A DNA stretch of 63,957 nucleotides, counting the filler, from an uncultured bacterium (lineage in GTDB: Bacteria; CAYJOG01), in the NCBI GenBank assembly GCA_964371695.1. It is 6 parts of 6 records of this genome, joined end to end, with 100 filler letters (N's around TTAATTAATTAA, not from the genome) between each part and the next. Parts side by side here need not be neighbours in the genome. Positions count along the whole stretch, not along the records: positions 55,063 to 63,957 come from CAYJOG010000084.1; 5 more parts are not named here. One strand, given 5' to 3'. Positions 55,063-63,957 of the stretch are shown piece by piece (the first letter of the stretch is position 1; each line of letters starts with the position of its first letter). Position numbers and translations under genes: made by a program. The notes beneath the pieces were generated by a model. That model saw only the letters and a list, made by a program, of their open reading frames with translations, did not search any database and was not told the origin of the DNA.

Positions 55063-55389
55063 GTGGCGTCCATGCTGGGGCTGATCATGCAGCGCAAGAG
55101 CGGCGGTGTGCGTTATTTCGTGGATGGGTATTACCTGGGCCTGACGCCGGGGGACAAGGAGCTTTGGTATCAGAGCATTCTGGACCCCTCTCAGGAGGGT
55201 GTGGTTTTCCTGCGTCACGCGCCGGTGGTGAAGGATGGCCGCCTGCTGGTGGCCCTGGGTGACATCGCGCCCTATCTGGGGTTGAAACTGTCCTATGACA
55301 AATCCCGGCGGCACCTGGCCATCACGGTGGATCAGGTGATTTCCACCTTTAGTCCGGGGCCACGTTTTCAGGGTGTATTCGGTTATTGA
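55063..55389 (+). CDS. Copper-amine-oxidase N-terminal (stalk)-like domain protein, 5' partial
   Basis: APVVKDGRLLVAL.DIA..LG.KLSYD...LAIT. Confidence 0.55.
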   Translation: MASMLGLIMQRKSGGVRYFVDGYYLGLTPGDKELWYQSILDPSQEGVVFLRHAPVVKDGRLLVALGDIAPYLGLKLSYDKSRRHLAITVDQVISTFSPGPRFQGVFGY

Positions 55390-55442
55390 AGTTGCTGGCT
55401 CTGCGCCTCATGCCGCCTGTTAACATGACCGCATGAATCCTG

Positions 55443-55784
55443 GAACTTATCTCAAAAATCCATCCGTGGATTTTTTCGGACGCCGGTTCCGGGGCTTTGC
55501 CCCGGCCCCAAGCGCGAAAATCTGTGGGTTTTCAACCCTACGATTTTCGGTGCAGGCCATCCTGGCCTGCCAGCAGCCATCTCAGAGCCTTTTTATAAAG
55601 TCCGTCCTGGACTTTATAAACGCACCGCCAGCGGGGGCAAAGCCCCCTCGGCGGGCAAAAACCTCAGTGTTTTCAACACTTCGGCTTTTGGAGCGGGCCA
55701 TCCATGGCCCGCAAGAGCCTGTTTCTGTTTCACCATGTTTCACATGGCGCAATTTGGAAACAGGCTCTCAAGGGTATTTTTGAG

Positions 55785-55792
<8 letters not shown>
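55443..55792 (-). mobile_element. MITE family C containing nested family B copy
   Basis: Ends GAACTTATCTCAAAAAT / ATTTTTGAGATGGCTGC; its terminal hairpin GCAGCCATCTCA..TGAGATGGCTGC is split by the inner element. Confidence 0.65.
55585..55767 (-). mobile_element. MITE family B copy 3 (183 bp, TSD TCA), inverted
   Basis: GAGCCT..AGGCTC ends; TCA at 55582-55584 and 55768-55770. Confidence 0.88.
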
Positions 55793-56846
<1,054 letters not shown>

Positions 56847-56849
56847 CCC

Positions 56850-57872
56850 ATGCGGCCCTTTCTCACAACCACCCGGATGGTGCTCATTCTGCTGATGATC
56901 CCGGCGTTTCTGTTGCTGGGCGCGCTGGGATTCATGGTGGTGGAAGGCTGGAGTTTTTCGGACAGCCTTTACATGTCGCTGATCACCCTCAGCACACTGG
57001 GGTTTTCAGAGGTGCATCCACTCTCGCCCGCTGGCCGGGGCGTGGTGGCGGTGGTGGTGCTGCTGAGTTTGGCGGCCATGCCGATTATCACCGCCATGGT
57101 CACCACCTGGTTTTTTGAAAACACCTTTGTGTCACTGTTCAAGGAGCGTCGCATGAAACGGCAACTGGACCACCTGGAAAAACACGTCATCATCTGCGGC
57201 CTGGGGCGCATGGGGCTGGAACTGGCCCAGCGGCTTGAAACCGCCGGAAAAACCTTTGTGGCCATTGAGCAGGACGGCAACATTCTGGAAGACGTGCGTC
57301 AGCATCACCCCCACTGGCTGGTGCTGCACGGCGACGCCACCAGCATGGAGTTGCTCAAGGACGCCCGTGTTGAAAAAGCCGAAACCCTGGTGGCTGCGCT
57401 TTCCAGCGACGCGGACAACCTCTATCTGCTGCTCAACGCCAAAGAGGTGGCCCCGCAGGCCCATCTCATCGCCCGTGCGGAATCCTCTACCGGTGCGCGG
57501 CGGTTGAGCCAACTGGGGGTCAACCACATCGTCACGCCGGTGGAAATCGGCGCACGGCGCATCAGCAATCTCATCCTTTCACCCCATCTGGTGGAGTTCA
57601 TGGACAACATCGCCAGCACCCACGGCCAGTCGGTGCAGATATACACCTATCAGGTGACAGAGGGCGACCGCCTGTGCGGCAAAGCCCTCCACGCGCTGGA
57701 AATTCCGCACCGTTCGCAGATGCTGGTGGTGAGCATCGAGTCCACCGAAGGCGCCATGCGTTTTGGCCCGCAGGCCGACACCGTGCTCAAAAACGGCGAC
57801 CGGCTTTTTCTCACCGGCCCTTCAGAGAACCTGCCGCTGTTTGAGTCGCTGGCACGGGGAGAAGGCGACTGA
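56850..57872 (+). CDS. Two-TM potassium channel with RCK/TrkA domains
   Basis: ITLSTLGFSEV pore, IICGLGRMG, GDAT, TrkA-C. Confidence 0.9.
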   Translation: MRPFLTTTRMVLILLMIPAFLLLGALGFMVVEGWSFSDSLYMSLITLSTLGFSEVHPLSPAGRGVVAVVVLLSLAAMPIITAMVTTWFFENTFVSLFKERRMKRQLDHLEKHVIICGLGRMGLELAQRLETAGKTFVAIEQDGNILEDVRQHHPHWLVLHGDATSMELLKDARVEKAETLVAALSSDADNLYLLLNAKEVAPQAHLIARAESSTGARRLSQLGVNHIVTPVEIGARRISNLILSPHLVEFMDNIASTHGQSVQIYTYQVTEGDRLCGKALHALEIPHRSQMLVVSIESTEGAMRFGPQADTVLKNGDRLFLTGPSENLPLFESLARGEGD

Positions 57873-57873
57873 C

Positions 57874-58533
57874 GTGACGCTGCTCGACGCTTTGGGGGAT
57901 TTTTCGCGCGTGGCCCTGTCGCTGGTGGCCATTGTGAATCCTTTGGGGGCGGTGCCTTTTTTCATCACGCTCACGCGGGACAAAACGGCGGCGGACCAGT
58001 TGCGTCTGGCGCGGGTGGCGGGTCAGTCGGTGTTGCTGATTCTGGTGTTCGCCGCGCTTATCGGAGAAGGTGTGCTGGACTTTTTTCACGTGAGCCTGCC
58101 CGCCTTTAGGGTGGGCGGGGGCGTGTTGCTCATGCTCATGGCCATTGACATGATGCACGCCCGGCAAAGCGGCGCGGTGCAGACGCCCGAAGAAATACAG
58201 GAAGCCAAAAATTACAGCGAAGTGGCGGTGGTGCCGCTGAGCATTCCGCTGCTTTCCGGGCCGGGGGCCATCAGCGCGGCGATTCTTTACAGCCACGAGG
58301 CGCGGGTGGCGGCTCAAGGTGAGGTGGCGCTGCGCCTGGGGCTTTTGCTGGGGGCCGCCGCCGTCACGGCGCTCATCACCTGGGTGAGCCTGCGCCTCGC
58401 GGTGCCCATTGGCAAACGTCTGGGGCAGAGCGGCATCAACATTGTGGCGCGCCTGATGGGCCTGCTGCTGGCGGCCATTGCGGTGGAGTTTGTCACCGCC
58501 GGTCTGCTCAAATTGTTTCCGGGTTTGGGGTAG
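57874..58533 (+). CDS. MarC family membrane protein
   Basis: IVNPLGAVPFF, VPLSIPLLSGPGAI, RLMGLLLAAIAV. Confidence 0.92.
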   Translation: MTLLDALGDFSRVALSLVAIVNPLGAVPFFITLTRDKTAADQLRLARVAGQSVLLILVFAALIGEGVLDFFHVSLPAFRVGGGVLLMLMAIDMMHARQSGAVQTPEEIQEAKNYSEVAVVPLSIPLLSGPGAISAAILYSHEARVAAQGEVALRLGLLLGAAAVTALITWVSLRLAVPIGKRLGQSGINIVARLMGLLLAAIAVEFVTAGLLKLFPGLG

Positions 58534-58555
58534 TTTTTGCCATTGACGCAGTGCC

Positions 58556-59311
58556 TTATTTCAACAGGCCATAACGCCGGGCCAGCTTTTTTTGCAGGGG
58601 GGAATACACGGCGGCCTCCAGGGCGATGCCCACCACCAGAATCAGCACAATGACCGACAACACGCGGGACATGTCGTTGAGGTCGCGGCCCATCTGCAAC
58701 TCATTGCCCAAACCCGGTGTGCTGAACAGCAGCTCCGCCGCCATCAGGGAGCGCCACGCCAGACTCCACGCCTGACGGTAACCACTCACAATGCCCACCA
58801 GCGCTGCGGGCAGCAGCACGTCGGTGGCCATGTGCAGGCCCCGCGCCCCCAGGTTGTGGCCCGCCCTGAGCAGTAGGGGCGGCACCTGACGGATGGCGTC
58901 GGCCACGCCCAGCGTGGCGGCCCCCAGCGCGCCCATGAACACCACAAACAGAATGGCCGTGTCGCCAAAACCAAACCACAACAACGACAGCGGCAGCCAG
59001 CAGATGCTGGGCATGGACCCCATGCCCGTCACCAGCACGCCAAAGGTGTTTTCAATCACCGGCAGGCGGGCGATGCCCACCCCCAGCGCGGTGCCCACCA
59101 CAAGCGCAATGCCGTAACCCGCCAGCAGGCGCTTGAGGCTCAGCAGCACCGCCAGGGGATAGGACCCCTCCATGAAACCGTCCCGAAAGGTGAGCGAGAT
59201 GTCCCTGAGGGGCGGAAACAGATAGGGGGGCAGGCTGCCAAAGCGGGCCACGGCCTCCCACACCAGGGCCAGCAGCAGAAAAAACACAGCGGCCTGAGCG
59301 GCTTTTTTCAT
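58556..59311 (-). CDS. ABC permease (SsuC/TauC/NitT family)
   Basis: YLFPP, SLKRL..GY, PSICWLP, AWRSLMAAEL. Confidence 0.92.
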   Translation of the reverse strand: MKKAAQAAVFFLLLALVWEAVARFGSLPPYLFPPLRDISLTFRDGFMEGSYPLAVLLSLKRLLAGYGIALVVGTALGVGIARLPVIENTFGVLVTGMGSMPSICWLPLSLLWFGFGDTAILFVVFMGALGAATLGVADAIRQVPPLLLRAGHNLGARGLHMATDVLLPAALVGIVSGYRQAWSLAWRSLMAAELLFSTPGLGNELQMGRDLNDMSRVLSVIVLILVVGIALEAAVYSPLQKKLARRYGLLK

Positions 59312-60393
59312 CAGGGGCCTCCTGCGGCGCGCACCGCCTGGGCCGGAAAGGCGCGGGGCGTGTTGGCGGCCCTGGTGAGTTCGGGCAGCACCTGATGGGT
59401 CCAGTGGTCGCTTTCGTCGGTGCCGTTGGGGCGTGGGGCGTTGCGGCCCAGGTCAAACGAAGCCTGCAAGCCGCCGCCGGGGCGCATCACGAGAATCCTG
59501 TCGGCCAGCCACACCGCCTCGCGCACGTCGTGGGTGATGAACACCACGGCTTTTTCGGTCTGGCGGGTGAGGTTCAGCAGGTCGTCATAAAGCGCCTGTT
59601 TGGTGAGGGCATCCAGGGCGGCAAAAGGCTCATCCATCAGCAGCAGTTCCGGATCCAACACCAGGGCGCGGGCCAGGGCCACCCGCTGGCGCATGCCGCC
59701 GGAAAGATGATGAATGGGGTGATTCTCAAAGCCCGACAGCCCCACGCGGCCCAGGAAGTCCTGGGCCAGCTCCAGCCGCGCCCGTTTGCTGATAGGGTGA
59801 TAACGCAGGCCAAAGGCCACGTTGTCGATGGCCGAGAGCCAGGGGAAAAGCCCCAGTTCCTGAAACAGCATGACGGTGTGGGGCAGGGGGCCGCCGCCGG
59901 GACCACAGAGGGTGCCCGCGTCGGGTTTTTCAAAACCGGCGATGAGGTTGAGCAGGGTGCTTTTGCCGCAGCCGCTTGGCCCCAGCAGCACCAGAAACTC
60001 ACCCTTTTTCAGGTCCAGGGAAAAATCGTTGAGCGCCGTGTGGGTGGCGCCGCCAAAAACAAAATGTTTGCTCAGGTTTTGCAGCCGCAATACGGGTGTT
60101 TCCGGGTCGTCGGCCTTCACGCGCCTGAGCACCAGTTTCCATTCCTCTTTGGGATGCTGAACATGAGACTGAAGCTCCACCGTCAGGCCGTGCCGCTCGG
60201 CGAAAAAAGGCACGGTTTCTTCCACCACCGGCAGGTGATCGGTGAGCACCACCATCACGCCGCCTTCTTGCATGGCCTCGGTGGCTTTTTTCACCCGCAC
60301 CAGACTGGTGGGGCACACCTCGCCGCGAATGTCCAGAATCTGGGCGTTGGGGTCAAAGGGCGTGGGGGCGGCAGACTTGTAAAAAGGCTTCAT
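59311..60393 (-). CDS. ABC ATPase (SsuB/TauB-like) with N-terminal TusA-like sulfur-carrier domain
   Basis: LDIRGEVCPTSLVRVKK...VLTD TusA-like segment, then GPSGCGKS, LSGGMRQR, LLMDEPF in one frame. Confidence 0.9.
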   Translation of the reverse strand: MKPFYKSAAPTPFDPNAQILDIRGEVCPTSLVRVKKATEAMQEGGVMVVLTDHLPVVEETVPFFAERHGLTVELQSHVQHPKEEWKLVLRRVKADDPETPVLRLQNLSKHFVFGGATHTALNDFSLDLKKGEFLVLLGPSGCGKSTLLNLIAGFEKPDAGTLCGPGGGPLPHTVMLFQELGLFPWLSAIDNVAFGLRYHPISKRARLELAQDFLGRVGLSGFENHPIHHLSGGMRQRVALARALVLDPELLLMDEPFAALDALTKQALYDDLLNLTRQTEKAVVFITHDVREAVWLADRILVMRPGGGLQASFDLGRNAPRPNGTDESDHWTHQVLPELTRAANTPRAFPAQAVRAAGGP

Positions 60394-61442
60394 GGCGTTT
60401 TCCTTTTCTGACCGGTGATGTTTTTTTGTGTTTTTTGTGTCACGGCGTTCAGCCAGCGCAGATCAAAGATGCCTTTCAGGGGATAAGGATGTCGGCCCAG
60501 AAACCCCAGCGCTGCAGCATCAGCAGCGTTTCTTGTCACGGCGGCGGCCATGGGTTGAAAGGTGAAAGAGAGCCTTTTCCATGCGCTGTTGAATATCTCG
60601 GCAGAGAGTGGTTTTCCGGTGTCCAGGGCCAGTTGCCGGTTGGTGCGTTGTTGGGCCGCCTGGGGGTGGGTTTTGATCCAGCGGATGGTGCGGACATGGG
60701 TGCTCACCAGCGTCCGGGTGCTGCGGGGGCGGCGGCGGATGAACTCCTGCGTGGCCACCAGAAGCGTGGTGGGATACACCCCGCCGGACCAGTGGGCGGA
60801 TTCCTCAAACAGCACCTTGCCCCCGGCCTGTTGCGTGAGGCGGCTCACCCAGGGTTCCACCACCCAGGCGCCGTCCAGATATTTTGTGCCGAAGGCGGCC
60901 ATCATGTCGGGGCCTTCCAGCGTGCGCACCATCAGGTTGGGCAGGTAGCCCTGTTTTTTGAGCCACAGGCGCAGGGCCACGTCCTGTGTGTTGCCGGTTT
61001 GCACGCTGGCGAAACGTTTGTTTTTCAAATCCTCTTTTCGGGCGCGGGCCAAGTGGGGTTGCACCACCATGGCCGCGCCGCCGGCGCAGGCCCCGGCCAG
61101 AATATGGATGGCCTTGCCCCGGCTGCGGACCCAGGCATTGATGGCGGGGCTGGGGCCCACATAGGCCACGTCCACGGCGCGGGCAAACAGGGCCTCCACA
61201 ATGGCCGGGCCGCCGCTGAAGACTTTCCATTCCACCGGGACATTGCCCAGGGCTTTTTCAAAAGCCCGTTGCTGCTGGGCCACCAGGGCGGGGGCGTGGG
61301 TGAGCGTGGCCAGACGGGCGATGCGGATGGGGGCTGGTTTGGCCTGGGCCGCAGCGGGCCGGGGCAGGAAAAGCGCCGCGAAAATCAGCCACACCGGCAG
61401 GTGGCGGCTGAAAAAGTAAATATCGGATTTGGTCGGTTTCAT
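60390..61442 (-). CDS. ABC substrate-binding protein (SsuA/aliphatic sulfonate-like)
   Basis: LTHAPAL, AYVGPSPAIN, GNTQDVALR, VEPW, YPTT. Confidence 0.9.
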   Translation of the reverse strand: MKPTKSDIYFFSRHLPVWLIFAALFLPRPAAAQAKPAPIRIARLATLTHAPALVAQQQRAFEKALGNVPVEWKVFSGGPAIVEALFARAVDVAYVGPSPAINAWVRSRGKAIHILAGACAGGAAMVVQPHLARARKEDLKNKRFASVQTGNTQDVALRLWLKKQGYLPNLMVRTLEGPDMMAAFGTKYLDGAWVVEPWVSRLTQQAGGKVLFEESAHWSGGVYPTTLLVATQEFIRRRPRSTRTLVSTHVRTIRWIKTHPQAAQQRTNRQLALDTGKPLSAEIFNSAWKRLSFTFQPMAAAVTRNAADAAALGFLGRHPYPLKGIFDLRWLNAVTQKTQKNITGQKRKTP

Positions 61443-61455
61443 TTTTTTGCAATGG

Positions 61456-61541
61456 AAAAACGCACCAAAAGGCTCCCCTCTGGCGGCTCCCCTGACTCTT
61501 GTTGGCGCTGGTGCGTATCAGCGCGCAACCACCGGGAAGCC
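61456..61541 (-). promoter_or_regulatory. Putative attenuator with mutually exclusive pairings
   Basis: ACGCACCA(61516-61509) pairs with TGGTGCGT+TTTT(61467-61456); GGCTTCCC-GGTGGTT(61541-61527) pairs with AGCCGCC..GGGGAGCC(61488-61471). Confidence 0.55.
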
Positions 61542-61586
61542 CCGTTGGGCGCAACAGGCGTTGCAACAACAGGTCACCGGCATCAT
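61518..61586 (-). CDS. Polycysteine leader peptide MMPVTCCCNACCAQRGFPVVAR
   Basis: 22-aa ORF with 5 Cys codons in 7, ending 75 nt upstream of the sulfur ABC operon. Confidence 0.7.
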   Translation of the reverse strand: MMPVTCCCNACCAQRGFPVVAR

Positions 61587-61592
61587 GGGGGC

Positions 61593-61622
61593 ATTGTGAG
61601 TGCCGCTGGCGGGGATTGTCAA
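61593..61622 (-). promoter_or_regulatory. Sigma70-like promoter TTGACA-N18-CACAAT placing +1 at the leader ATG
   Basis: Consensus -35 at 61622-61617; -10 at 61598-61593; 6 nt to ATG 61586; no SD. Confidence 0.6.
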
Positions 61623-61624
61623 GT

Positions 61625-61891
61625 TAGAGCATTTTCGGAAATGGTAGAGCAAAAGGGGGGGGGGTCGCCTCACCCCTTTTTTGGGGGGGGGCGGAAGGAT
61701 TTGGCGTCTGGGGCCAAATTTTACGGGTGTGGGGTTGACACAAGAAACAAAAGCCTTATTCGGTTTTTTTGCTTTTGAATAAACCCCTCACCCGGCCTTC
61801 GGCCTCCCTCTCCCCATTAAAGGGGAGAGGGGGGGGGCATGGTCTTTGGCTGCACCAAGAGGAGTACTCCATCAATTCCGAAAATGCTCTA
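61625..61891. mobile_element. MITE with TIR TAGAGCATTTTCGGAA containing a CCCTCTCCC hairpin
   Basis: 16-bp perfect TIR; same right end also at ~33255-33271. Confidence 0.75.
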
Positions 61892-61914
61892 ACAGGGTGT
61901 TTATCAACACCCTG

Positions 61915-63957
61915 CTAACGGGGCATCGGTCGATTTTCCGGCAGGTCTTCGGGATAAACCGCGCCGGTTTCTTTTTTCGTGGTGTTCAGGATTTTTTCCA
62001 GCCAGGTCTCTTTGGGGGCAAACCGCTGGGCGGCGTCTACATAAGCCACACCCCCGGCAAAGTTTTTTTCACTCAGGGCATTCTTGAACTGGTAAACCAT
62101 GCGGTAATTGATGTAGGCCCGGTGACTCTGCGCCGCCATGCGTCGCCATTTTTTCCGCTCAAGCCGGGAGGGGGCGTTTTGGGATAACCATTGGGCCGAT
62201 TCATAGGCCTGGGCGGTGAGAAGGTTTTCCTCGGTAGAGCGCTGGGCCAGTTCCAGGGCTTTCTTTTTCATGCCCAGGGCGGTCAGGGTGTTCAGCCATT
62301 CCGTGTCGGCAAAATCGGCGGTGGTGCGGGCGATTTTTCGGGCGGTGTTGCGGTGGCCCAGGGCAAAGTGCGACAAGACGGTTTCATACTGGTAAATGTC
62401 TTTGTAGGCAGGGAGTTTGCCCAGTTCTTTGAGGGCTTTCAGGCTCTGTCGTGGCCTGCCCGTGATGCGATACCACCGCGACACAAACGCATTGCCTTCG
62501 CCACGGGTCTGGCGCGAGAGCATTTGCATTTCTTTGTCCATGCGCGGTCTCAGGCCGGGGTGGTTGAACTGCGGCAGGTAATAGGAGCCTTCGTTCAGGC
62601 AGGGGCAGAACAGTTCGTAACCCGGCAGGTCTGGGGCTTTGGCCTTGGGCACGGCCACAAAATTGTGGATGTCGAAATACACCACCTTGAAGGGGCCATC
62701 TGCCGGGAAAAAGGAATAATGCATGGCCCGTGGGCTGGTCACCGGCATGACCACCAGTTTCACGCCATATTTTTTGATCAGCCTGCGGAAATGAGCCGGG
62801 TCTTTGGTGACATCAAAATAATCCTGATAAAACTTGTCGCTGAAAGCGAAACGCCCATCCATGAAGGTTTTGAGCCTAGGGTAATAACGAAAGATGAACC
62901 AGCCGCCGTGGCCGTATTCGTTATAGAGCCTGCCGTGGAGTTTGTGCTTGTCTACAAAGGCCATGGCCTGCACGGGGTAGTGTTGTTTTTCGTTGAGCGC
63001 GAGATTCCACGTGGCGGGTTTGACCTGCCAAACCGCCACCGCCGCCAGCACCAGGGCCGCCAGCCGGGGCAACAGGGCCAGACGGCTGGGCAAAAGCGCC
63101 TCGCCCTGAAAAGCAGAAAGCGACAGCAGCGAAATGGGCATGCTCAGCACCGCCAACAGCCACAAAAAACGCACGTGCTGGTGACCCATATAAAGCACCA
63201 CGCCCAGCACGGCGGCGTCTGAAAGCAGGCCCAACACCGATCGCAGGGTGTGCCACCATGCCTCTGTGGCGGGCAGGGTTTGGCTGAACCGCCGCCCGGC
63301 CTGGGCGGTGTTGAGCGCCGAAATGCCCAGCGCCACCACCGAGCACACCAGAAACCCCGCCACGGTGGGAGAGACTTCCAGCAGAGTGGCGGATCTGAAC
63401 TCCATCACAAACTGCAACACCACCGATTTTTTGTGGGCCAGCAGGAAGGTGAAAATTTTAGGCCCCCAGGGATTGATGCACGAAGCCACGATCAGCCCCA
63501 GCACACCGGCGGATCTTTTCAGCAGGTTCGAGAACGGCTCGCCCGACAGGCTCCAGTGGCGGAAAACCCACCAGCCCGACAGCAGGATGCCCACAAAAAA
63601 ATAACCGTGCAGGTTGACCCACAGGATCTGCAACAGCCACAGGGGCAGCCAGTCTTTCGCGGTCAGGGGATTTTTGATGAGCAATCGGGCAGCGAAAAGC
63701 GCCACCAGCAACTGGCTGAAAAGCTCTGGTCGTTCACCAAAGCGGTATCGCAAAAAGGCCACCAGCACCAGCAAAAACACCAGCGCCGCAGCAGGCTCGC
63801 GCAACTTGTTCACCGCCACGCGGAACCAGAGCGCAAACGCCCCCACCACCAGCACCGCCCGCAGCAGATAAATGCCCCAGATGTCCAGGGTGCGGTAGAG
63901 GAGGTAAAAAGTGACCTGCGACAGCCACTCGAATACAAACCAGGGGTGGTTTGGCTC
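61915..63957 (-). CDS. Multi-TM membrane protein (GT-C-like glycosyltransferase candidate), 5' partial
   Basis: W..EWL, ERPELFS, LWVNLHG, INPWG, TFMDGR motifs; frame open to window end. Confidence 0.7.
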   Translation of the reverse strand, partial: EPNHPWFVFEWLSQVTFYLLYRTLDIWGIYLLRAVLVVGAFALWFRVAVNKLREPAAALVFLLVLVAFLRYRFGERPELFSQLLVALFAARLLIKNPLTAKDWLPLWLLQILWVNLHGYFFVGILLSGWWVFRHWSLSGEPFSNLLKRSAGVLGLIVASCINPWGPKIFTFLLAHKKSVVLQFVMEFRSATLLEVSPTVAGFLVCSVVALGISALNTAQAGRRFSQTLPATEAWWHTLRSVLGLLSDAAVLGVVLYMGHQHVRFLWLLAVLSMPISLLSLSAFQGEALLPSRLALLPRLAALVLAAVAVWQVKPATWNLALNEKQHYPVQAMAFVDKHKLHGRLYNEYGHGGWFIFRYYPRLKTFMDGRFAFSDKFYQDYFDVTKDPAHFRRLIKKYGVKLVVMPVTSPRAMHYSFFPADGPFKVVYFDIHNFVAVPKAKAPDLPGYELFCPCLNEGSYYLPQFNHPGLRPRMDKEMQMLSRQTRGEGNAFVSRWYRITGRPRQSLKALKELGKLPAYKDIYQYETVLSHFALGHRNTARKIARTTADFADTEWLNTLTALGMKKKALELAQRSTEENLLTAQAYESAQWLSQNAPSRLERKKWRRMAAQSHRAYINYRMVYQFKNALSEKNFAGGVAYVDAAQRFAPKETWLEKILNTTKKETGAVYPEDLPENRPMPR

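Follow-up and report, generated by a model that had tools for sequence, protein, structure and literature searches.

Why should a reading frame of 22 codons, five of them for cysteine, stand directly before the genes of a putative sulfur-compound importer? The question is raised by a locus in an uncultured bacterium (GCA_964371695.1), for which a first-pass annotation had proposed that ribosomes stalling at the cysteine codons relieve a block before a sulfur-uptake operon. The window, that is, the whole stretch of 63,957 nucleotides analysed here, is a chain of contigs, and the locus sits on one of them, 8895 nt long, at window positions 55063-63957. We propose, with a probability of roughly 0.6, that the leader attenuates transcription of a three-gene ABC importer in response to cysteine, by way of a leader peptide. 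The core of the earlier proposal is supported in silico by a predicted antiterminator of significant complementarity (p about 0.003-0.005), a switch at the cysteine triplet when a ribosome is mimicked by masking, the score of the terminator-like hairpin, and an ORF free of listed differences in related contigs.

The operon and its genomic setting

The genes downstream of the leader form an SsuABC-like operon, as had been annotated, and a repeat element lies on the other side of the leader:

58556..59311, minus strand: ABC permease (SsuC/TauC/SaoP-like), the last gene of the operon
59311..60393, minus strand: ABC ATPase (TauB/SsuB-like) carrying a TusA sulfur-carrier domain at its N-terminus; start and binding-protein stop overlap by 4 nt
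60390..61442, minus strand: SsuA-like periplasmic substrate-binding protein (NMT1_2; TIGR01728 SsuA_fam 161.3 bits, against a cut-off of 163.5)
61623..61893, no strand assigned: repeat element with inverted 18-nt ends (61640-61623 and 61876-61893), between the upstream gene and the promoter-like site

Since the gene beyond the permease is convergent, the operon consists of three genes. The ATPase is closest to taurine/sulfonate types, and its residues 19-90 match TusA at 47 bits. The MKP start of the binding protein agrees with that of an 81%-identical relative (P0002) encoded on a 2033-nt contig, and no Shine-Dalgarno sequence precedes the binding-protein gene. In E. coli, sulfur or cysteine limitation induces operons of the SsuABC/Tau kind.

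At 83% completeness, the genome is spread over 672 contigs; it is the sole member of its phylum among the approximately 200,000 species genomes compared. That its bearer is a diderm, as had been suggested, is a reasonable conclusion given a BamA-like match and four secretin matches over the cut-off. The 18-nt end of the repeat element occurs in 51 copies (with at most two mismatches) on 46 contigs, 28 of these copies lying within 300 nt of a contig end. The repeat is outside the proposed switch, but it bears on where transcription starts.

The leader ORF and its start

Five features make up the start region and the candidate leader peptide:

61617..61622, minus strand: -35-like hexamer TTGACA, directly adjoining the repeat-element end at 61623
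61593..61598, minus strand: -10-like hexamer CACAAT, 6 nt 5' of the ATG; spacing of the leaderless class, with C rather than T as first base
61518..61586, minus strand: candidate cysteine-sensing leader peptide, 22-codon ORF plus stop
61563..61571, minus strand: Cys codons 6-8 (TGT TGT TGC); with a ribosome held here, the antiterminator is predicted to be free
61551..61556, minus strand: Cys codons 11-12 (TGT TGC); with a stall here, the terminator is predicted to be intact

The ORF, MMPVTCCCNACCAQRGFPVVAR, is read on the minus strand from 61586 to 61518 (TGA at 61520-61518), and cysteine accounts for codons 6-8 and 11-12, five of the 22. Upstream, TTGACA (61622-61617) is followed by an 18-nt spacer, CACAAT (61598-61593), the six nucleotides GCCCCC and the ATG at 61586; on inspection, there is no GGAG-like or Shine-Dalgarno motif 5' of this ATG. 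All of these elements had been pointed out before, and all are present in the sequence. A consensus scan of 61000-62200 on both strands returned this TTGACA-18-CACAAT as the only promoter-like site, one found against 0.4 expected from shuffles. The ORF ends 76 nt before the first operon gene and places runs of two or more Cys codons ahead of an operon.

Would such an ORF be translated from a leaderless mRNA? Of the 1145 long ORFs of this genome, 114 have a TANNNT that ends exactly 6 nt before their ATG or GTG, where the background per offset is 7.6. Members of this class have a C-rich spacer, with C at -1 in 72% of cases, and the leader ORF shares the class spacing, the C-rich spacer and the C at -1. 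However, its hexamer, CACAAT, starts with C, and CANNNT at the 6-nt spacing is unenriched (18 observed against a background of 17.95). A TTGACA-like -35 (at least 4 of 6 matches) is weakly enriched in the leaderless class, at 23.6% versus 16.8%, and -35 boxes are weak genome-wide. Of the earlier claim of a leaderless start, then, the geometry of hexamer, 6-nt gap and ATG fits the genome's own class, while the identity of the hexamer and the -35 box lend it little. Because geometry, spacer and C at -1 are shared but the hexamer begins with a base for which no enrichment is seen, leaderless initiation is plausible, and we consider it somewhat doubtful that the ORF is translated from an mRNA starting at A61586. 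Farther upstream there are two TANNNT boxes, one within the repeat end (61646-61641) and one that straddles its boundary (61626-61621); transcripts from them would have leaders of about 48 and 28 nt, respectively.

Is the cysteine-rich frame more than a chance reading?

The simplest alternative is that the leader is an ordinary 5' untranslated region, or carries a hairpin that is constitutive or otherwise regulated, and that the cysteine frame is an untranslated by-product of CTG/TTG-rich sequence. Frames of this kind are indeed common. Windows with at least five Cys in eight residues number 144 in the 6.85 million six-frame residues of the whole genome, and most of them are out-of-frame readings of Leu-rich coding sequence. 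One look-alike, MTPVICCCC on contig C58, proved to lie out of frame inside a real gene that begins with a Leu-rich signal/membrane segment; a Cys-rich match on contig C658 is likewise out of frame, inside a gene with a Leu-rich signal/membrane start. The lack of enrichment of the CANNNT variant of the -10 hexamer also fits a chance origin.

Other counts speak against it. According to a codon-usage score trained on the genome's 1145 long ORFs, only 18 of the 144 windows lie in sequence of low coding potential, and among these 18 the leader ORF is the sole short ORF that starts with ATG; it ties for the lowest score. Cysteine makes up 0.93% of codons in the long ORFs, versus 5 of 22 in the leader ORF, and TGT is 28% of the Cys codons in the former, versus 3 of 5 in the latter. 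The position of the frame, before a sulfur importer, is a further point against coincidence.

Predicted terminator, antiterminator and ribosome position

Between the leader ORF and the binding-protein gene, and reaching back into the ORF, are the elements of the putative switch:

61463..61485, minus strand: hairpin resembling a terminator, with 10 bp, GAG loop and -11.8 kcal/mol; the pair C61486:G61461 would lengthen it past a bulged C
61456..61460, minus strand: U5 run 3' of the hairpin, 13 nt short of the binding-protein start codon
61527..61552, minus strand: predicted antiterminator 5' arm, within the 3' half of the leader ORF
61460..61488, minus strand: predicted antiterminator 3' arm, spanning the entire terminator hairpin

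The hairpin at 61485-61463, followed by CGTTTTT, was flagged as terminator-like by a consensus scan and starts about 30 nt past the ORF stop. When the RNA is folded from 61586, the pairing 61485-61476:61472-61463 has a probability of approximately 1.0, whether the RNA is free or a ribosome occupies the stop codon. Its hairpin-plus-U score is -14.3 kcal/mol; among 1145 in-gene control windows, 3.1% score -12 or lower and 0.8% score -15 or lower, so that the hairpin outscores about 97-99% of the controls. Hairpin-plus-U terminators are modestly enriched after genes in this genome (10.2% versus 5.7% at -10 or lower).

Two crossing pairings had been described in the first-pass annotation, the 3' end of the ORF (61541-61527) with 61488-61471, and 61516-61509 with 61467-61460 plus the U run. 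Both exist, and the first is now seen to be part of a longer helix, 61552-61527 with 61488-61460. The second, a stem with a large loop, is a perfect 8-bp complement, but it has a probability of 0.00 in every folded ensemble. As the terminator stem it is disfavoured, and the compact hairpin at 61485-61463, with its 3-nt loop and the U5 run, takes its place.

The longer helix is the minimum-energy fold when the 5' part of the RNA is masked as it would be by a ribosome at Cys7/Cys8, and it consumes the whole hairpin. The strongest duplex that the upstream 94 nt can form with the terminator region has an energy of -38.2 kcal/mol, against a mean of -26.9 (sd 3.2) for shuffles, and it is matched by 0.003 of 1000 dinucleotide shuffles and by 0.005 of about 2000 random genomic segments. 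A complementarity of this order (p about 0.004) argues against a chance frame.

To mimic a moving ribosome, the RNA was masked from the 5' end in 3-nt steps, giving 30 front positions. The terminator probability falls to 0.00 exclusively at fronts 61556 and 61553, which correspond, with a 12-nt lead, to Cys7 and Cys8 in the A site. At front 61559 (Cys6) it is 0.43, and the terminated and read-through folds are nearly equal there (-47.7 versus -47.6). At most other fronts it is 0.92-0.98, with a second partial dip at fronts 61520-61511 and a value of 0.98 at 61508, where the ribosome is at the stop codon. Stalls at Cys11/12 keep the terminator. Constrained folding, which had been put forward as a check, thus comes out in favour of the proposal: in silico, the terminator is lost just when the A site is on Cys7 or Cys8, and the coincidence of the terminator-abolishing position with the Cys triplet would be hard to expect of a by-product frame.

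Not all of the folding results discriminate as well. The region of the Cys codons pairs with the antiterminator arm in the minimum-energy fold, yet this pairing has p 0.35 relative to random genomic 34-mers. Synonymous recoding of the ORF retains most of the antiterminator complementarity (p 0.42), which makes this control uninformative. Segments repeated in the leader (CCUGUUG twice, GGGGAGCC twice) provide extra alternative pairings. The overall fold of the leader has a z-score of just -2.26, a point in favour of a chance frame.

A proposed mechanism

On these predictions, the switch would work as follows. With ample Cys-tRNA, the ribosome would reach the stop codon and cover the 5' arm of the antiterminator; with that arm covered, the hairpin would form, and RNA polymerase would terminate ahead of the binding-protein gene. 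Under a shortage of Cys-tRNA, the ribosome would wait with Cys7 or Cys8 in its A site and its front edge near 61556-61553. There, it would cover the second CCUGUUG repeat (61558-61552), which would otherwise pair with part of the antiterminator arm, and would leave nearly all of 61552-61527 free to pair with 61488-61460 as it emerges. That pairing would block the terminator, and the operon would be transcribed.

An alternative way of coupling the same stall to the operon is translational. In the manner of Ms5788A, the start site of the binding-protein gene would be hidden in a structure until a stalled ribosome opens it. This is the only polycysteine-sORF mechanism dissected experimentally, as far as the available text of the mycobacterial study goes (10.1101/834739), and since the binding-protein gene lacks a Shine-Dalgarno sequence, its initiation may be sensitive to structure. 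However, in all predicted states the 13 A-rich nucleotides leading up to the ATG at 61442 are unpaired or weakly paired, and the structure that is predicted to switch is a hairpin followed by a U run. We therefore regard translational attenuation as very improbable here and transcription attenuation as the preferred form of the cysteine-responsive leader.

Variation in related contigs

Of the sequencing runs listed as containing this stretch, none is of RNA. Public run contigs were aligned to 61100-61950 for a close comparison. Two runs, X1 and X2, match the locus almost exactly and probably represent the same population as the source. Two other contigs are more informative. One, 278 nt long and from run X5, aligns to 61501-61624 with eight differences, four of them listed (61517 and 61590-61592) and four unlisted near the ends of the aligned pieces; the match stops at the boundary of the repeat element. 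The other, 151 nt long and from run X6, aligns to 61452-61587 and shows 11 differences and one gap; four changes are listed, three substitutions and the gap, at 61489, 61499-61500 and 61517. Both contigs are short and of low depth, and the change at 61517 is common to both, which suggests that X5 and X6 may be one lineage.

No listed X6 difference falls between 61518 and about 61574, the stretch that holds all five Cys codons. With X5, the block free of listed differences extends over 61518-61589 and coincides with the ORF, ending within 1 nt past the stop and 3 nt before the start. The listed differences in the two related contigs thus flank the ORF and none lies within it, contrary to what a meaningless frame would lead one to expect. 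Differences near the ends of aligned pieces are not listed, so that eight X6 differences are unseen and X6 cannot be judged over ORF codons 1-4 and the 3' end of the terminator; these eight may be in those codons, or in the terminator 3' arm and U run.

The changes listed for X6 downstream of the ORF are neutral to the predicted structure. Three of the four are at unpaired positions, and at the fourth, a U-G pair of the helix 61540-61534:61492-61486 becomes U-A. With all four applied, the predicted terminator is kept in the free and stop states, and in the stall states an alternative that disrupts the terminator is kept too, with different pairings.

The same block can be read without any translation. 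The stretch 61518-61589 could be a leader RNA that binds a ligand or protein, or an operator of a sulfur regulator, that controls the terminator, with the ORF incidental. It is free of listed differences at synonymous sites as well, which fits constraint at the nucleotide level, and an Rrf2-family regulator gene precedes related transporters in Terriglobia (loci L070 and L087), from which it follows that protein regulators of this type of operon exist. Against this reading, a search of the leader with Rfam gave no family match (best E at least 0.4, far under the gathering scores); the limits of the difference-free block coincide with those of the ORF; and five Cys codons before a sulfur operon are the signature of published cysteine leader peptides. 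We consider a translation-independent element improbable.

The conservation of the ORF might also reflect a functional product, that is, a small Cys-rich peptide that binds metal or sulfur, or a modified-peptide precursor, co-transcribed with the transporter. The ORF carries no listed differences in the related contigs, as a functional peptide would require, and five Cys in seven residues could bind metal. On the other hand, a protein search with the 51-aa open frame that covers the leader ORF returned no candidate, no modification or export genes are nearby, and a terminator placed between ORF and operon suits a sensor rather than a co-expressed product. Such a peptide is in our view scarcely credible, and a sensor peptide remains the preferred interpretation.

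Distant relatives and the rest of the genome

If the leader senses cysteine, similar ORFs might be expected before homologous genes, and their absence had been named as evidence against the proposal. Close relatives were sought by protein, and none was found in genome contigs or metagenome contigs; a degenerate DNA pattern for the peptide TCCCNACCAQ gave 0 matches in metagenome contigs; and a DNA search within the phylum met only the genome itself, with no second copy of the leader. An alignment-based search yielded 80 loci from many phyla whose binding proteins are 35-43% identical, and in 0 of these 80 is there an M-started Cys-rich sORF upstream. This absence fits a chance frame, but at 35-43% identity the loci are too distant to refute the proposal. 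A search of 20 of the 80 loci with Rfam found one tRNA and nothing else.

Under a looser rule, any sORF of at most 45 aa with CC, 7 of 77 loci have a frame on the plus strand and 1 of 77 on the minus strand. Two of the seven, at L034 and L076, were inspected and are out of frame in the end of the upstream permease gene. The Cys frames at L070 and L087 are out of frame within the upstream Rrf2-family gene; its Rrf2 domain is confirmed by Pfam for L070 only (108 bits), and L087 is assigned by its similarity to L070.

Within this genome, no second Cys sORF was found among 245 short ORFs behind TANNNT-6 nt-RTG sites. CC occurs in 5 of the 245, none of them before a sulfur gene recognisable by eye, family searches aside. 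Nor did the regions ahead of the cysK-like gene on contig C285 and of a second SsuA-family gene on contig C281 yield a Cys sORF; cysS is truncated by the end of its contig, and no convincing cysE was found. Because no second Cys sORF turned up, there is no support at the level of a regulon, as one would also expect of a chance frame. Taking the points on both sides together, we judge it quite unlikely that the frame is an untranslated by-product, and the cysteine-responsive attenuator is still the reading that we favour.

Comparison with known systems

The principle proposed here is already textbook, and the gain is one of breadth, not of kind. The classical leader-peptide transcription attenuators are those of the E. 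coli trp, his, leu and thr amino-acid operons. As in these, the leader ORF is rich in codons for the amino acid presumed to be sensed, the antiterminator overlaps the terminator, and the stall position would decide between them; in silico, the terminator likewise lies between the leader ORF and the first gene, with the antiterminator's 5' arm in the last part of the ORF. Unlike in these systems, it is cysteine that would be sensed, and the target is an importer and not a biosynthetic operon. Furthermore, the pairing of the regulatory codons (segments 1:2) is not above chance here (p 0.35), and the repeated segments add alternative pairings.

Closer in the amino acid sensed are the leaderless polycysteine sORFs of mycobacteria (Ms5788A, Rv2334A and others; the "Cys ribulon"), which the available text of Canestrari et al. 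describes as Cys-responsive attenuators (10.1101/834739). Like those, the present ORF is a short unannotated first cistron with consecutive Cys codons before sulfur or cysteine genes; the proposed sensing is ribosome pausing at scarce Cys-tRNA, and the start codon may be the 5' end of the transcript. There is no sequence relationship, however, and the host is of a different, diderm lineage. At the one mycobacterial locus that was dissected, the next gene's ribosome-binding site is masked, the mechanism at other loci being left open in the portion of that paper available; here, the predicted switch is a terminator hairpin with a U run, and the start region before 61442 is not sequestered. The mycobacterial regulon, as described there, comprises multiple loci, in contrast to a single locus here.

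Among diderms, the part of Brewer et al. (RNA Biol 2021, PMC8632094) that is available describes the uORFC-8-2 motif upstream of cysS in Rhodobacterales. It resembles the present leader in being a predicted ribosome-mediated attenuator with tandem Cys codons in a uORF and a terminal U run that would fit an intrinsic terminator. It differs in its target (cysS versus a transporter), in its number of Cys codons (two versus five) and in lineage, again by that account. Candidate Cys leader peptides have also been reported before cys/cbs operons of Mycobacterium, Propionibacterium and Bifidobacterium (Seliverstov et al., BMC Microbiol 2005, PMC1262725, in its available sections). These too are short ORFs with runs of Cys codons before sulfur-metabolism genes. 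According to the same sections, the actinobacterial cys/cbs leaders have no obvious terminator hairpin, and their authors suggested Rho-dependent termination, whereas a hairpin and U run are present here.

How far would the present locus extend this picture? It is tempting to propose an independently evolved and truly leaderless cysteine sensor that acts by transcription termination, not by masking of a ribosome-binding site, in a diderm alone in its phylum, and that controls a TusA-fused importer; this full combination we regard as rather unlikely. If the attenuator is real, an uncultured lineage without close relatives would regulate the uptake of sulfur compounds through the ribosome and not through a protein of the CysB or Rrf2 type. 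The reach of a mechanism that has been tested in mycobacteria alone, with predictions in a few other groups, would then include a distant diderm phylum and, as a target, a transporter. A link between a TusA-fused ABC importer and cysteine supply would, in addition, help in guessing the cargo of the importer.

A minor observation concerns the lineage as a whole. The genome-wide TANNNT-6 nt-ATG/GTG signal shows leaderless mRNAs to be, by all appearances, common in it, and this would matter for the annotation of its genes and short ORFs.

Start sites and probable leaderless genes

Among the 1145 long ORFs of the genome-wide set, 114 have a TANNNT motif ending exactly 6 nt upstream of the ATG or GTG start codon, against a background of 7.6, and the spacer between motif and start codon in this class is C-rich. 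In a smaller first pass of 764 ORFs, 64% of the start codons had a C at position -1. Shine-Dalgarno-like motifs, most frequent at -12 to -8, are found in a minority of genes only. Judged from sequence, the strong TANNNT-6 nt-ATG/GTG class probably represents leaderless genes.

Repeats in and upstream of the leader

The leader, the RNA that precedes the importer operon, contains two pairs of direct repeats:
61573-61567 and 61558-61552, direct repeat CCUGUUG, two copies
61492-61485 and 61478-61471, direct repeat GGGGAGCC, two copies

Both copies of CCUGUUG are able to pair with one partner segment, CAACGGG, and both copies of GGGGAGCC with another, GGCUUCCC. Since each pair of repeats shares a common partner, the leader has decoy pairings, which may or may not play a part in the proposed switch.

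Upstream of the leader lie the following features:
61623-61893, repeat element of about 270 bp, with inverted 18-nt ends (TTCCGAAAATGCTCTAAC and variants)
61915-63855, minus strand, 646-aa ORF

Searches of the 646-aa ORF against Pfam and NCBIfam profiles gave zero matches. The ends of the repeat element, counted at up to 2 mismatches, occur in 51 copies genome-wide, spread over 46 contigs; because 28 of these copies lie 300 nt or less from the end of a contig, the element has probably broken the genome assembly. Four metagenome runs cover its inner part, 61767-61824, to depths of 200-1300. In many copies, an outward-facing TACCAT stands 6 nt upstream of an A close to the element end, and this hexamer resembles the -10 boxes of the same genome. 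Given this arrangement, the element could serve as an outward promoter.

The transporter and its surroundings

Two genes of the operon and its vicinity are considered here:
59311-60393, minus strand, ABC ATPase with an N-terminal TusA sulfur-carrier domain, CPTS motif
55704-56846, plus strand, PLP enzyme of the D-cysteine desulfhydrase / cysteate sulfo-lyase (CuyA) / ACC deaminase family

The CPTS motif of the TusA domain is at the usual Cys position. Only 2 of the 80 homologous loci have a TusA-like stretch fused to or adjoining the ATPase, namely those of a Dadabacteria MAG (L018) and a Deltaproteobacteria MAG (L022). The PLP enzyme sits 1.7 kb past the operon on the opposite strand, and its top match is CuyA, at 130 bits, far under the cut-off of 450; the enzyme may take part in breaking down sulfonates or cysteine.

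In two Terriglobia loci, L070 and L087, a conserved gene lies directly 5′ of the homologous binding-protein gene. The L070 copy (L070:2403-2933) belongs to the Rrf2 family (Pfam, 108 bits), and the L087 gene is assigned by its similarity to that copy. An Rrf2-type gene in this position suggests that the Terriglobia members of the transporter family are under protein-based control.
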